Positions 7,301 to 13,300 of a stretch of DNA of 58,225 nt are shown piece by piece (position 1 is the first letter of the stretch; the number at the start of each line of letters is the position of its first letter). The position numbers are program-made. This DNA is from a virus (taxonomy: Duplodnaviria > Heunggongvirae > Uroviricota > Caudoviricetes), in IMG/VR virus record IMGVR_UViG_2671180275_000006; one strand, written 5' to 3'.

Positions 7301-10300
7301 GCGTGTGGTGAGAAATTCCCGCAACCCTGAATTTATGAATGAAGTTAAAGACGCCTGCCTTAAAAAGCAGGCGTTTTGTTTTGAGGCACCTGATGGCTTT
7401 CTGGTGCTGCGTTCTGTGCTCAGTGCTGATGGTATCCCTTATGTTCTGGTGTTGCTGGGCGTGTGTACGGGGAGTAACAGCGTTGAGCGTTATCTGCCGG
7501 AGGTGAAGACATTAACCCGTCTGGCTGGCGGACGTTGGGCTGAATTTCATACGGCAAGGCGGGGATTTATCCGGCTGGGAAAACGTCTGGGCTTTGAGCG
7601 AATGCCGGATGATGAGGATGGCTTCATGGTGTTCAGGATAGCGGTCTGACTGCCACAGTTTTCATCATCGTGTTTAAACCAACATTGCAATTCACATTCT
7701 GACCCTGCTCCGGCAGGGTTTTTTTATTATCCAGGGGGCCATTATGGGTGGAAGTAAAGGTGGTGGTGATACCAAAGTAAAACCAACAGCAGCGCAAATA
7801 GCACAGGAAGAAGTGGCCTGGAAAGGGTGGCAGGATTACAAAAATATCCTCCGCCCGGCTGAAGATAACTTCATGGAAAAGGTCGATGACCTGAACAGTG
7901 AGCAGCAGTACGACAATATCGCTGGCACCACAAATCTGGGGTATCAGAAACAGTTTGGCGAAGCACGGAAGGAGCTGGCGGGTAATCTTGCTCAGTCCGG
8001 TGTTGACCCGTCCAGTGGTCGCTTTAACGCGGTAATGAATGCGAACCAGAGTGATCAGGTAACCGGGCAGATTGACACAACCACACGGGGGCAGGTATCG
8101 CAGGCAGATAAGTATGTTGCCGGGCTACAGGATGTTGCAGCTCTCGGTTCAGGTCAGAAGGCGGATGCGTTACAGAGTTTTAACTCGCTGGCAGACAGCA
8201 GTCTGGCAAAAGCTAAATCGGACGCACAGGCTGCGTTTACGAAACAGCAGGGGCGAGCCTCTCTTGTTGGCGCTGGTTTGGGTGCGGTAGGTGCATATGC
8301 GATGCATAAGGCTGGTGGTAGCGGAGGAAGTGGCGGTGCTAAAACACCGGGCACCGGCGCTAATGCCATTCAGCATCAGGCTCAGAACTGGAGACTGTGA
8401 TTATGGAGTACGGTAAATACGAAACACTTGCGAGATACGGTTATACCGGAGCTGCCCGTCCACAGGGTGACTGGCAGACGTCAGCAGCGCTGACACGCCA
8501 ACAATACGACGACTGGCGAACCAGATATTTGCCCCGCGTGGCAAGGCTGGCTGACCTTGGCGAGAACAACAGCCTGATGAATGCACAGCTTGCCCGGGTG
8601 GGCGGCCTTGCCACTTCCAGTCTCCGTACAGCGCAGATGGCGCAGGATAACCAGATGGCGAGATACGGGGTAAGCCGCCCGGATAATCCCGACAGTAATA
8701 CGCTGGGGTTACGTAATGCCCTGGCAATTGCTGGCGCGAAAAATGGTATCCGTGAAGCCGAACAGGATCGCCAGATGAACATACTGACGGGGGCTTCTGC
8801 ACCGGCAAGACAGAAACTGAGTGTTGGCGGACAACTGGTGGCAGCGTAAGGAGGAAATATGGGGTACGGCTTACTGGATATTGCGAATCAGTCACGGCGT
8901 GAGGCATTACAGGGAATAAGTGACGCAGACCGACGACGTGAAGAAATTGAGGCTGCGAACAAACAGATGGCGGCGCAACAGAAAGCGCAGAACAAGCAGA
9001 ATATCGGTACGGGCATTGGTACGGGGGCGGCTATTGGCGCATCCGTTGGTGGTCCTGTTGGTGCTGTTGCTGGAGCAGTAATTGGCGGCATTGCTGGTTC
9101 TTTGTTTTAAGGAGTGGTGAATGAGCGGATTTGCACAGGGGTTACTTGCCGGATTCAGCACGGTTGACCAGGCAATGACCCGTCGTAAGGAGCTTGGTCT
9201 GCGTGAAGCACAGCTTGCCCGGCAACAGAAAAATAACGAGCGCGATTTTGAGTTTGCGCAGTCTCAGTTTGAACATAATAAAAACGTTGATCAGCGGAAC
9301 TTTGATTACAGAGCCAAAGTTGACGACCGTAATTATGCACTGAAGGAAAGGGAGTTTAACGCTAACCAGAATTACCGGAATGCGTCGCTGGGTATGGAGC
9401 AGCAGCGACTCCGGATGCAGAAATACAACCAGCGACGGCTTGAGTATAACGATATGCTGGCGCGCGATCAGCCTGTGATGGCGGCGCTTGGAAAGGCTGT
9501 GGATGCTGGCGATCGGGATGCAGCAATGCGTCTTTACGGCCAGTTGTCAGAGGGTAATCCGCTGAGGCTGATGGCGAATGATGGCTATGTAGCGAAAGCG
9601 GGTCAGGCCGTGAACAACCTGCAAAAAATCTTTGATGACAAGCCAGACAGGGCTATCGCTTCACTTAATACGCCGGAGAATCTTGATGTCCTTTCCGGGG
9701 TGTTTGGCCCGGAACTGCAACAGCGTATTGGCATGCCCGATTCAACCGGGAAAAAGACGATAAAAGAGGCCAGGATTGGCAGTATAGTACCGGCACAGCA
9801 GGAAGGGTACATACTTATCGGCCTTGATCTCACATACAGTGATGGCTCTACAGCACATAAACCTGTAACAGAATACGGCAGTGCGCACCCTGATGATCAA
9901 ACCGTGCTGGCGATACCCGTTGATAAGGCTATCGCTCAGGTCAGGGATCGCAGCAAATTTGCAGAGATATCGAAAAATTATGGTTATTTTATGCCGAAGC
10001 AGCAGGGACTTTCTCTGAAAGAGCTTCAGAAGGGGGCCAGCAACGTCGCGGCGGACGCGATCAAGAATGGCGGTAATGCACAGGCTGCGGTGGATGAATA
10101 TTATGCTGCGACTGGTTCACAACCGCATCAACAGAAAATTCAGCAACAAAAACTTCAGCAACAGGTTATCAACTGGGCGGGAGATGATCCTGATAAGCTG
10201 TCATTTGCCAGAAATGTAGCGGCCCGTCAGCCTGAAATGCTGGAGCCTCAGAATCAGAAATTGCTGGAGAACGGGTATGCGAATTTTCTCCGTATTCAAA

Positions 10301-13300
10301 AGGCCAGGGGGGAACAGGCCAGAGATGAAAGTGCTTCATCTGCATCTCAGTTTATCCGTGGACTGAAACAGAATTACGCCCAGTAATTCACGATATTCCA
10401 TTAATACCATTTCCTGATGCCCGGCCATTGTGCCGGGTTTTTTTATGGAGTCTGTATGGCCTATTCAGAGGAACAGCGTCCTGAGGCGCAACTCGGTAAC
10501 CAGAATCGTAACAGCCTGAACATTCAGCAACCCGGCGAAACTGACAGCTATGAAGCATTTTTCTCTGATCCGAATCGCTGGAAGGATAACAGTACGTCGT
10601 TCAGCCTGGGCGATGTATTGCCAACAATGGGTAAAGGTTTCGCCCAGTCCGTCCGGGGAACAGGGGAAATGGCCCGTGGACTCGGTGATGCGATGATTCA
10701 GAGCCCGGTAAAAACAGGGGCGCGTATTTTAAATGAGTTCAGCCGTATGGGGCTGCCGGGTGTCGCAACTGTGCAGGATATTTTTGCCGGTGGCAGCAGG
10801 GGGGCTGATGAGGTCATCGATACCCTGCCTGATGGCAAAAACGCGGTTACTGATACTGTCGGTAAAGGTCTGAAGGCAACCGGTAAGGCTGTCAGTGATG
10901 GTGCTGAAGCCACTGATGAATGGCTGACCGGTAAGATGTCGCCGGGTGCAGTTCGTGCGCTGAATACGCCGATGACCGAAGGCTATGATGATTCTGCGGT
11001 CTGGGTGGCGAAGGGTGTAAACCTGATTGGTGCGCTTGTACCTGATATGGTTGCTGGCGGTGTGGCTAAAAAGGTGGGTGATGTCACACTGCGAAAAATG
11101 CTGACCGCCGGGCTGGAGAAAAAATACATCGCGGCAGGGATGCAGCCGGAAAGAGCCACGGCACTGGCAGCAGAAGCTGTCGATAAAAAAATGCCGGATT
11201 TATTCCAGGCGGGCCTGATCACCCATTCCACAGCCAGTGCACAGGGGCAGAGTGCAATGGCGGCAGCAGATGCTGTTCTTAATGCGGATTACTCTGAGCT
11301 GGCGCAGTCACCGAAATTTCAGCAGACGTTTTTGTCCATTGACGCCGACCCGCAGCACGCACAGCTTACTGATCGCCAGAAAATGGATCTGGCAAAAGAG
11401 CGTGTTGCCGATGAGGTGCGCGCGCAGCTGGCAACCGATCCTGAATTGCTGGCTGTGAATGCCATGGCGGCAAAACTGGGTGACGCACAACTGTTTAATC
11501 TGGTGACACGAGGCACAGCGAAGACCGTTAAAAGCGGCATTGTCAGAAATGCCACGGAACAGGGGGCGATTAATGCGGCGCAGGGCGGCTATTCACGCTA
11601 TCAGGAAAACACGGCATTGCGTGAGACCGCCGGAATGGATGTGTCACCGTGGGAGGGCGTGGCTGACGCAACGATCGAAGGTGCAGCCTTTGGTGCTGCG
11701 ATGGGGGCTCCATCCGGTGCGGTTGCCGGATATCGTGGCAGACGTCAGGCCGCAGAAGAAGCAGCCATGCGTGATGCTGAAACCGTGCAGCAGGACGACG
11801 CAGCCCCGCAACCAGAATCTGTTGATCCGGTGGCGCAGCATCGTGAATCCATGCAGGGGATGAATCGCGAGCAGCTTCTGGAGCAGTATGCTGATGCGGA
11901 TATGGCAACAGAGGGGGACGCATCCGCAGCTCATCGCCGGGAAGCTGCCAGCCAGTTGTTGAATGAACTGGACGAACAGGCGAAGCGACAGGCTGTGATG
12001 AATGAGCTGAAGGCGAAGCCGCGTTCTGAACTGCTTGAGGAATACCGCAGACTCAGCCAGAAAGAGGAGCGCACCGAGACTGAAGAACAACAGTTTCAGG
12101 CAATACGAGAAGTCATTCGCCCACAACAGGAAGTGACGCCGGAAGCACAGTCACAGCCTGAAAATGCGGAGGATGGTAACGGGAGCATTTACCCGACGGT
12201 GCGGTTCCGGGACCCGAATGAAGTCCGCATTGAAATTAACGGGAATGGTGCGTCCAGACCAGCGGAACGCATTGAAAAGGTGCGCCCGGACAACCGTTAT
12301 TTCACGGATGAGAAAAGCGCCATGGGGAGTGATGTTTTCCGTAATGCCGCCGCCACCGGCCTGAAACCGTCCGTAGTGAAGAAAGGCGAGACTCAATATG
12401 CTGTTGAAATGGATAATCCTGCGTTCTCTGAAGATGTGGCAACGGAAACCATTAACACCCTGGCTGACGGAGAGCGTATTGCTGATGCTGACCCGATGGA
12501 GCAGCCCGCGTTCATGCGTGACCCACGATTCCGTGGTTTCACGGGGGATGATACGGAGGTACAGGCCCGCCTTGCCCGTGGCAACGTGCCGACGGCAGAG
12601 GAGCTTGTACGTTCACAGATGGCTGAAGGTGATGCCGGTCCGACAGCACAGGAGTTAACTGAGCGTCCACGCCTGCCCGCTCCCGGCGATATTCATCCCG
12701 GACAGGGATATCCGTTACCGGGAGAGGTGGCGCGTACGCCGGATGAGAATCAGGCAGGACGTGGTGGTCGTTTTACCACAACCGGTGAGGTTAAGGGCCA
12801 GAGTTTCCAGAAAGGACAAGCTCTGGCACCGGAAAACGCCGCTGGTCGCCAGGGGGAAACACTCGAGGGTGAAATGGTTCGTCGTGGTCTGCCGTCACCG
12901 GATGCGCAGAACGCGACAGCACCGGTACGTGAAGGGCTACCGGCTCCGGACATTACACACAATGTCCGTATGCCTCAGCCTGATCAGCTTCCCCGAACTG
13001 TTCGTAACTCATTGCCTGAGCTCGCACAGCAGGCAGAAGTACGTCGACAGGCCGGAGGAAATCGTGACATCCCGCAGCCTGAGACAATCGCACCTGAATC
13101 TGAAACAACAGTCGCTACTGACAGGGAAGCTACCGTGCGCGGAGGTGAAGTCAGGGGCAAAAAAATTGAAGACTTTGGTGAAGAAATTAAGGGCGCGGCA
13201 AAACACCGTTATGCACAGCTTGCTGAAACACTGGGTAAAACGCTGGAAGACAGGGATTATGTCACGCAACCGCTGAGCAAACTGTTCCCGAAACCGGACT

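Follow-up and report, generated by a model that had tools for sequence, protein, structure and literature searches.

This analysis concerns five consecutive genes in a 58,225-nucleotide (nt) stretch of viral DNA (IMG/VR record IMGVR_UViG_2671180275_000006, Caudoviricetes), the whole of which is referred to as the window: four small to medium-sized open reading frames (ORFs), ORF76 to ORF79, and the giant gene downstream of them, ORF80. The region shares 99.7% identity with Shigella phage Ss-VASD and 95.8% with phage phi24B, and the window is a short-tailed Shiga toxin (Stx) phage of the 933W/phi24B type, a Sepvirinae podovirus which has no lambda-type tail region and carries a morphogenetic module of the GP4/Bcep22 type. 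The four genes correspond to ORF76-79 (ECs1238-1241) of Sp5 and to gp51-gp48 of phi24B, and the giant gene to Sp5 ORF80 (ECs1242) and phi24B gp47; the gene-by-gene assignment to Sp5, the numbering of which is used here, is based on matching protein lengths (218/148/83/421/2793 amino acids (aa)). The features of the locus are:

7248..7649, plus strand: ORF75, 133 aa, 3 cysteines (Cys), adjoining the cassette upstream
7701..7727, plus strand: terminator-like hairpin with T-run just before ORF76 (consensus scan only)
7744..8400, plus strand: ORF76 (ECs1238, gp51), 218 aa, rich in Gly, Ala and Gln, 0 Cys, phrog_611
8403..8849, plus strand: ORF77 (ECs1239, gp50), 148 aa, 0 Cys, phrog_596
8859..9110, plus strand: ORF78 (ECs1240, gp49), 83 aa, 0 Cys, phrog_594
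9121..10386, plus strand: ORF79 (ECs1241, gp48), 421 aa, 0 Cys, phrog_601
10419..10445, plus strand: terminator-like hairpin with T-run between ORF79 and the giant gene (consensus scan only)
10456..18837, plus strand: ORF80 (ECs1242, gp47), 2793-aa polyvalent protein, 0 Cys

An earlier sequence-only reading of this DNA had described four tightly coupled genes with strong ribosome binding sites (RBSs), and the four ORFs, all on the plus strand, and their RBSs were confirmed. ORF76 has AGGGGG at 7733-7738, 5 nt 5' of its ATG at 7744, and ends with TGA at 8398-8400. The next RBS, GGAGA at 8390-8394, is separated by 2 nt from GTG 8397 and by 8 nt from ATG 8403, and on the basis of this spacing, the Sp5 annotation (148 aa) and the N-termini of orthologs ORF77 most likely starts at ATG 8403 (148 aa) and not at GTG 8397, so that the overlap of ORF76 and ORF77 (8397/8400) in the sequence-only reading becomes a 2-nt gap. 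The close spacing described for the other two boundaries did hold: ORF77 stops with TAA at 8847-8849, followed by GGAGG at 8850-8854 and the ORF78 ATG at 8859, and ORF78 stops with TAA at 9108-9110, followed by GGAG at 9111-9114 and the ORF79 ATG at 9121. With ORF77 read from ATG 8403 the intergenic gaps within ORF76-79 are thus 2, 9 and 10 nt, with a Shine-Dalgarno sequence 4-8 nt upstream of each gene. The giant ORF most likely starts at ATG 10456 (GGAG at 10447-10450; 2793 aa) and not at 10417. The two GC-rich hairpins at 7701-7727 and 10419-10445, each followed by a T-run, flank ORF76-79 inside the late operon; as putative terminators they might, under Q antitermination, determine how strongly the small proteins are expressed relative to the giant.

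The cassette is present in 186 records of the phage collection with 80-100% identity (nearly all above 90%), almost all of them Stx-converting or closely related short-tailed phages, and the size-ordered set followed by a giant ORF was also found in four distant lineages, i.e. Aeromonas phage phiARM81mr, Vibrio phage 1.205.O and the metagenomic contigs L005 and L017. Protein lengths (aa) are given below in the order ORF75-like / ORF76-like / ORF77-like / ORF78-like / ORF79-like / giant:

This window: 133 / 218 / 148 / 83 / 421 / 2793
Aeromonas phage phiARM81mr: 119 / 212 / 124 / 85 / 466 / 3190
Vibrio phage 1.205.O: 131 / 201 / 117 / 77 / 442 / 3130
Metagenomic contig L005: 131 / 212 / 154 / 78 / 556 / at least 1487
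Metagenomic contig L017: 126 / 216 / 142 / 86 / 701 / 1733

ORF75-79 share only 21-52% identity with their Aeromonas and Vibrio orthologs, and ORF79 is approximately 19% identical to its L005 homolog. Judged from the 186 records and from the same ordered set in distant lineages, the four-gene cluster is no chance arrangement. The cassette is preceded in the Aeromonas phage, the Vibrio phage and L005 by nozzle and needle/fibre genes, and in L017 by SU10-type adaptor genes with a likely nozzle gene; the nozzle gene ties the whole group to Bcep22-like and Ralstonia GP4-like phages. Bcep22 and Gervaise encode a 509-532-aa protein with an N-terminal motif similar to that of ORF79, followed by a giant of 4500-4600 aa, and a giant Cys-free ORF is located 3' of the cassette in every lineage examined. 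In the window the cassette is situated in the tail part of the late operon, close to lom, and the sequence-only reading had placed the four genes after lom and outside the usual lambda tail order. This frame does not apply to a GP4/Bcep22-type module: the Aeromonas and Vibrio phages are without lom and have the block immediately 3' of the needle/tail-fibre gene, and lom/gp54/gp55 therefore look like insertions specific to the Stx-phage lineage. As a side observation on the Aeromonas phage, the 1.9 kb separating p68 from the giant p69 (phiARM81mr 16682-18541) are unannotated and contain an open frame of 666 codons, and the giant of this phage is probably longer than annotated.

The Gly-rich and Gln/Asn-rich composition noted in the sequence-only reading is borne out by the counts. 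Glycine makes up 13.8% of ORF76, 9.5% of ORF77, 18.1% of ORF78 and 7.1% of ORF79, while Gln plus Asn amount to 13-17% in all four, compared with 4-9% in most flanking genes (13.0% in the 92-aa gp55-like ORF). A second shared feature of the proteins is the absence of Cys: ORF76-80 of the window contain none in 3663 aa, as is true of the equivalents in the Aeromonas phage (4077 aa), the Vibrio phage (3967 aa), L005 (2487 aa) and L017 (2878 aa), and of gp70, gp74 and gp75 of Bcep22 (5465 aa), and in 148 representatives of the ORF79 family there are 25 Cys in 67,631 aa (0.037%), the exceptions being mostly short or otherwise of atypical length. Flanking or interleaved genes (ORF75, nozzle, adaptors, major capsid protein (MCP), portal, GNAT, PAPS reductase) have 1-3% Cys, and at the local frequency the probability of finding no Cys in the 870 aa of the four small proteins is approximately 7e-6 to 7e-5. 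For calibration, the known ejection proteins of T7 (gp14/15/16) contain 1/0/0 Cys, those of P22 (gp7/20/16) none, and those of N4 (gp52/51/50) none in 4294 aa, compared with 4 Cys in P22 gp14, and 9, 2, 1 and 1 in DarB, DdrB, DarA and Hdf of P1, where Ulx and DdrA have none. Depletion of Cys was used in the DEV study as a mark of ejection proteins, which must cross the periplasm.

No named function was assigned to ORF76-79 by searches of Pfam, PHROGs, NCBIfam and PADLOC, as phrog_611, phrog_596, phrog_594 and phrog_601 are all of 'unknown function'. Homology to tail assembly chaperones, baseplate or tail-tube proteins, which would have contradicted the sequence-only reading, was not detected in Pfam, PHROGs, NCBIfam or the PDB. 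ORF76 gave reciprocal profile matches with phrog_8003, the Bcep22 gp70 family annotated as 'virion structural protein': all 22 members of the ORF76 family match phrog_8003 (best E 4e-16), phrog_611 is matched by Bcep22 gp70 (3e-11) and Gervaise gp25 (4e-10), and hhalign aligns ORF76 with Bcep22 gp70 at a probability (Prob) of 96.6% and with Gervaise gp25 at 94.9%. These profile comparisons identify Bcep22 gp70 and Gervaise gp25 as true homologs of ORF76. ORF77 in turn is weakly similar to the ORF76 family by hhalign (Prob 47%, E 2e-4), and as both proteins align to one and the same part of Gervaise gp25, the pair may go back to an old tandem duplication; ORF77 is possibly a divergent paralog of ORF76, and partial redundancy of such a pair would explain mild phenotypes of single deletions. 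Separately, we considered ORF76 as a homolog of P22 gp7, and dropped this assignment: hhalign against a six-member gp7 alignment gave Prob 5% and E 0.008 over 30 columns, none of the 22 ORF76-family members matches phrog_598 (P22 gp7, 'DNA ejection') at E<=1, and where the N-terminus of ORF76 resembles that of mature gp7-family proteins, it does so at motif level and without statistical support.

With regard to the presence of these proteins in virions, a preprint on phi24B (10.64898/2026.04.10.717836) describes a T=9 capsid with a GP4-like tail, and its built model comprises only MCP, cement, decoration, portal, two adaptors, nozzle, fibre and needle, with the ORF76-79 homologs absent. The tail was solved at ~3 Å and the density in its lumen was assigned to DNA and the needle. 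As gp47 is abundant yet invisible in the map, the phi24B authors proposed it as an encapsidated ejection protein; gp48-gp51 are never named in the main text, and are present in the proteome supplement. Peptide-spectrum matches (PSM) in the batch sample and copies per virion (portal = 12) are as follows:

gp47 (ORF80): 746 PSM, ~23 copies per virion
gp48 (ORF79): 179 PSM, ~30-37 copies per virion
gp49 (ORF78): 6 PSM, no abundance row
gp50 (ORF77): 83 PSM, ~36-48 copies per virion
gp51 (ORF76): 82 PSM (523 in total), ~22-27 copies per virion
portal: 101 PSM, 12 copies

All four small proteins are hence detected in virions of the 95.8%-identical phage, three of them abundantly, in agreement with the sequence-only reading, which had looked to virion mass spectrometry. 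The structure-based abundance of gp47, gp48, gp50 and gp51 is given as 'ND' in the same supplement. By our arithmetic the authors' copy numbers correspond to ~8-10 MDa of protein per virion without a place in the model (with a two- to threefold uncertainty), which by our reasoning would be too much for a 22-nm tail, and plausible in a T=9 head with ~58-62 kb of DNA. The preparation contained ~36,000 'ejected' particles, and the authors suggest that 'internal tail contents', in intact particles only, may act as a core that constrains the orientation of the tail.

Genetic data are available from in-frame deletions in Sp5 (Mondal et al. 2016, PMC5155283). Deletion of either ORF79 or ORF80 gave 0 plaques and 0 lysogens and was complemented in trans, and the mutants contained packaged DNA at wild-type level with normal-looking heads, while deletion of ORF76 strongly reduced lysogenisation (PMC5155283). 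In Sp5 there is thus a post-packaging need for infectivity for ORF79 and ORF80, partly for ORF76, and none for ORF77 and ORF78.

The smallest of the four proteins, ORF78, consists of an amphipathic N-terminal part and a C-terminal glycine-zipper hydrophobic segment that ends in SLF, and the hydrophobic tail described in the sequence-only reading is real: residues 57-75 have a Kyte-Doolittle value of 1.69 (19 residues), no charged residues and ten overlapping small-xxx-small runs, and orthologs conserve MGYGLL...GGPxGAxxGAxVG..GSLF. The Pfam Gly-zipper_YMGG model scores 25.7 bits, slightly below its cut-off; NCBIfam and PADLOC scans of the cassette returned nothing except sub-threshold glycine-zipper matches (far below the cut-offs for NCBIfam), and the sole match to a tail-labelled family, a tape-measure PHROG (E 7e-4), covers the zipper segment only. 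RefSeq names the product 'bacteriocin', a name that we reject, since the match to Pfam Bacteriocin_IIc (PF10439) is at 19.7 bits with a cut-off of 27.1 and covers only the same segment. This annotation was the reason for the phi24B authors to set gp49 aside as 'E. coli bacteriocin' contamination. Few PSM are to be expected for this protein, as trypsin yields no more than four peptides from it that are of a size usually detected, its zipper half lacking K and R; ORF78/gp49 is probably a real virion component that is mis-annotated as a bacteriocin, and it is the clearest membrane-active candidate of the cassette.

Taken literally, the bacteriocin label would mean that ORF78 is a small bacteriocin or a toxin acting on membranes and that the genes next to it serve, like lom, in lysogenic conversion or exclusion, i.e. 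as accessory 'moron' genes unrelated to the virion. This fits the adjacent lom, the dispensability of ORF77 and ORF78, the treatment of gp49 as a contaminant and the weak Bacteriocin_IIc match. It is nonetheless very improbable, as that match is below cut-off and, like all others, falls on the zipper segment, gene order and sizes are kept in lineages without lom, always between tail genes and a giant virion protein, three of the four proteins are at or above portal abundance in virions, and ORF79 is essential.

ORF79 carries a conserved N-terminal motif, G-L-A-x-G-F-L-A-G-F, and belongs to a family of 652 clusters at 50% identity (E<=1e-3), of which 75 of the 77 members sampled match phrog_601. 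Its AlphaFold2 (AF2) model (predicted local distance difference test (pLDDT) 69, predicted template modelling score (pTM) 0.39) has a helix of ~119 residues, a small helical domain, a small beta domain and C-terminal helices. The model has no specific neighbour in the PDB or BFVD by fold, nor is there a PDB relative by profile, the best match of the 77-sequence profile being a weak one to a Rib-like 'VTYxDGS' motif (E 0.038, 6s5w). The small beta domain contains, at residues ~230-250, the sequence 'VTYxDGSxxxxPVT', which weakly resembles the Rib domain of Gram-positive surface proteins. Two apparent fusions were discarded: P0326, an ORF79-like N-terminus with ~1000 further residues, was considered as a 'Rosetta stone' and has no similarity to the giant protein, and P0264, in which an ORF78-like sequence is fused to an ORF79-like one, has a frameshifted tail and is probably an assembly artefact.

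ORF80 is classed as a 'polyvalent protein' on account of its LPD5, LPD1, MuF_C and LPD38 domains (Pfam), and its C-terminus matches a 'DarB-like antirestriction' PHROG; the Pfam scan showed no lysozyme or transglycosylase domain. MuF_C lies at about residues 1750-1837, with HExxH-like motifs (HEWFH, HEIIHH) elsewhere in the protein; the phi24B preprint (10.64898/2026.04.10.717836) calls MuF-C a metallopeptidase that would digest peptidoglycan, and Iyer et al. 2017 defined it as a PBECR (predicted RNase) domain. Spectral counts of gp47 are highest in the top gel band, yet hundreds are found through about ten lower bands (phi24B supplement), suggesting fragmentation or processing of the giant in stored virions. 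From the domain predictions for contig L017, the effector content of the giant is swapped between lineages while the small proteins are kept. The L017 giant (11296-16497) has a ddrB-ParB domain and a faint Zeta_toxin match, and no LPD5, LPD1 or MuF_C.

Taken together, we think it probable that ORF76-79 and the giant ORF80 form one head-internal module that is delivered at infection, where the location inside the capsid is inferred by exclusion from the cryo-electron microscopy (cryo-EM) model, and ejection and the role of each protein are also inferred. ORF76-80 would be a conserved late-gene cassette, the products of which are packaged in the head of a T=9 phage of the GP4/Bcep22 type. Once the tail needle is released, these proteins would exit via the portal-tail channel ahead of or with the DNA and cross the oxidising periplasm, a passage that would explain the absence of Cys, and they may help to build or open the DNA path across the envelope. 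The indispensable core would consist of ORF79, with its predicted long helix and ~30-37 copies, and ORF80, while ORF78 with its glycine zipper and the ORF76/ORF77 pair are candidate membrane-active or accessory subunits; loss of ORF76 would lower efficiency (as shown for lysogenisation), with no reported defect upon loss of ORF77 or ORF78. The internal or ejection-type role proposed in the sequence-only reading is thus upheld with respect to the podovirus context, presence in the virion and lack of Cys, and is left without a link by homology or fold.

Several observations weigh against such a delivery module. The proteomic (phi24B) and genetic (Sp5) data are from close relatives and not from the exact window sequence, the phi24B maps have no assigned internal density, and neither ORF77 nor ORF78 belongs to the essential set when deleted individually in Sp5 (PMC5155283). 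ORF78 is the sole small protein with a clearly hydrophobic segment. T7 gp14 and P22 gp7 are essential, in contrast to the dispensable ORF77 and ORF78 and the partly needed ORF76. Direct sequence searches of the PDB with each of the four proteins gave nothing meaningful, hhalign comparisons with P22 gp7 and gp20, N4 gp51 and T7 gp15 remained at Prob <=5%, and ORF79 showed no sequence or fold similarity to the T7 gp15, N4 gp51, DEV gp72 and P22 gp20 families; the AF2 model of ORF76 (pLDDT 35.6) was unusable and was left out of the fold search. The comparison with P22 gp7/gp20/gp16 and T7 gp14-16 put forward with the sequence-only reading, to which N4 gp51/52 were added, therefore gave no link by sequence profile or predicted structure, and for the ORF79 family hhalign with P22 gp20, N4 gp51, T7 gp15, Bcep22 gp74 and Gervaise gp27 provided no support beyond the N-terminal motif. 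In the literature, ejection proteins share <10% identity and are usually matched by size and synteny rather than by sequence, and the failed homology searches hence lower the case for membership of the gp7 or gp15 families, while leaving intact the notion that these proteins work like them.

A further point against the delivery module comes from the Sp5 study, in which ORF79 and ORF80 deletion particles were not labelled by an anti-tail-fibre antibody (data not shown), on which basis both genes were classed as 'tail formation' (PMC5155283). This differs from the behaviour of ejection-protein mutants of P22, and the missing label is the main observation which the delivery module does not explain. 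Following the conclusion of that study, ORF79, and perhaps the other three proteins, would build or stabilise the short tail, either as a plug or core in the portal-nozzle lumen or as flexible external parts lost by averaging, and the packaged DNA and normal heads of the unlabelled particles, the location of the genes in the tail part of the late operon and the possible orientation-constraining core of 'internal tail contents' all agree with this. We still regard such a tail role as quite unlikely: the ~3 Å tail is accounted for by portal, two adaptors, nozzle, fibres and needle, ~20-50 copies of each protein together with ~20 copies of a 308-kDa protein would by volume exceed a 22-nm tail, the negative immunogold result is reported as 'data not shown', and the nozzle, adaptor and fibre proteins do not share the Cys-free signature.

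The domain content of ORF80 allows another interpretation, in which the proteins are head cargo as in the Dar system of phage P1: the small proteins would recruit, fold or position the giant 'DarB-like' effector, as Hdf, DarA, DdrA and Ulx serve DarB in P1, and would be co-injected passengers or chaperones without forming a conduit. The 'DarB-like antirestriction' match of the ORF80 C-terminus and the polyvalent-protein domains, which are predicted to belong to packaged and delivered effectors, are in its favour, as are the variation of the giant effectors by lineage (DarB-like, ddrB-ParB) next to constant small proteins and the suggestion of the JC1 authors that unidentified virion proteins may be homologs of Dar accessory proteins; presence in the virion and lack of ordered density fit equally well. 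However, when a single K-12 strain serves both for making and for plating the phage, which should remove any need for anti-restriction, ORF79 and ORF80 are still essential, PHROG and Pfam scans showed no homology to Hdf, DarA, DdrA or Ulx, and four of the six P1 Dar proteins counted contain Cys, compared with none in the cassette across six lineages, so that we consider this cargo role unlikely, albeit less so than a role in the tail.

Going beyond delivery as such, and put forward here only tentatively, PHROGs 611, 596, 594 and 601 together with the giant polyvalent protein could represent a third, evolutionarily separate design of podophage ejectosome, with swappable anti-defence effectors mounted on the largest conduit subunit and with ORF78 inserting into the membrane. 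If so, DNA delivery and host takeover would be physically coupled, and the design, which comprises hundreds of protein clusters, would be found in Stx phages of the 933W type as well as in prophages of Aeromonas and Vibrio, with a modified version in Bcep22- and GP4-like phages. The data also suggest that giant polyvalent 'DarB-like' proteins are more than mere anti-restriction cargo.

Upstream of the cassette, the slot of ORF75 is taken by orthologs in the Aeromonas phage, the Vibrio phage and L005, and in L017 by a 126-aa Cys-containing ORF (assigned by position only). The homolog of ORF75 is missing from the phi24B proteome table and Sp5 tolerates deletion of ORF75. At the equivalent slot Bcep22 and Gervaise have a GNAT acetyltransferase and P22 has its assembly factor gp14, and no similarity of ORF75 to P22 gp14, GNAT families or Bcep22 gp69 was detected; ORF75 may be a non-structural assembly factor for the cassette. 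Further upstream, the tail-needle homolog (3811-5079, plus strand, 422 aa, phi24B gp56) also has 0 Cys, as does the P22 needle gp26, which fits the observation in phi24B that the central fibre is gone from ejected particles. Elsewhere in the window, a 412-aa ORF at 54987-56225 (plus strand) encodes a tyrosine integrase with up to 39% identity to integrases of other temperate phages. The linear Ss-VASD record stops ~0.5 kb past the giant gene, and the window sequence beyond ~19 kb lies outside that record.

Virion association (Bcep22, JC1, phi24B), the essentiality of ORF79 and ORF80 and the proposal of the giant as an ejection protein were already published, while the grouping of the four small genes and the giant into one conserved Cys-free cassette, its breadth across lineages, the homology of ORF76 to Bcep22 gp70 and the argument for gp49 as a genuine virion component are new. 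Short-tailed Stx phages are agents of the spread of Shiga toxin genes in E. coli and Shigella, and the cassette bears on how Stx-phage DNA crosses the envelope after recognition of BamA. Five consecutive 'hypothetical' genes would become one delivery module, with targets for work on host range, transduction efficiency and exclusion, and the Cys-free signature combined with size-ordered synteny gives a cheap rule for finding such modules in phages with giant 'DarB-like' proteins.

Finally, we compared the cassette with known systems. The Dar system of P1 likewise combines a very large multidomain protein packaged in the head with several small head-internal proteins, the link being the 'DarB-like' annotation, whereas the small proteins of the cassette have no homology to it in PHROG or Pfam, four of the six P1 Dar proteins counted carry Cys, and P1 has a contractile tail. 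On hosts without restriction Dar is not needed, in contrast to the essential ORF79 and ORF80 of Sp5. As in T7 gp14-16, there is a small-medium-large operon with almost no Cys, relatives are recognised by size and synteny, and by analogy the products would be needed for DNA delivery by a short-tailed phage; unlike in T7, there is no homology to gp15, no transglycosylase domain was detected in the giant, and phi24B has no ordered core stack.

A further comparison is with the virion proteins at the 'DarB-like' giant of Bcep22, JC1 and Ralstonia GP4-like phages (Bcep22 gp70, gp74, gp75). Shared with the window are a homolog of ORF76 (Bcep22 gp70, Gervaise gp25) and a homologous nozzle, and the JC1 and Bcep22 equivalents are virion-associated by mass spectrometry. 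Bcep22 and Gervaise have a Cys-free 509-532-aa protein, with an N-terminal motif rich in Gly and small residues, before the Cys-free giant, although the likeness of ORF79 to Bcep22 gp74 is confined to this motif and statistically unsupported. Unlike the window, these two phages interleave two Cys-containing enzymes, GNAT and PAPS reductase, and are without a separately annotated ORF77-like or ORF78-like gene.

The ejection operon of N4 and DEV encodes gp52/gp73 (~150 aa), the all-helical gp51/gp72 (520-640 aa) and the virion RNA polymerase gp50/gp71 (~3400-3500 aa). Here too, small, medium and giant virion-protein genes are adjacent, co-oriented and Cys-free in a phage with a T=9 capsid, the giant is encapsidated in several copies and the medium-sized protein is helix-rich. 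The giant of the window is, however, an LPD5/LPD1/MuF_C/LPD38 polyvalent protein and no RNA polymerase, there are four small or medium-sized proteins (two of them dispensable) instead of two, and no ordered ring around the portal is reported for phi24B. P22 depends on each of gp7, gp20 and gp16, and mutants in these genes form particles with tails, whereas ORF76-78 fall short of being strictly essential and the ORF79 and ORF80 mutants were scored without fibre label. The similarities to P22 (gp7 229 aa, gp20 471 aa, gp16 609 aa) are in the arrangement of the genes, which lie 3' of the tail needle and start with a small Cys-containing non-virion gene, followed by Cys-free proteins of ~220 aa, ~450 aa and larger, and also in copy numbers, which are in the tens in both P22 and phi24B. 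The gene orders are 26-14-7-20-16 in P22 and 52-51-50 in N4, and in the cassette it is likewise small, medium and giant after the needle gene.

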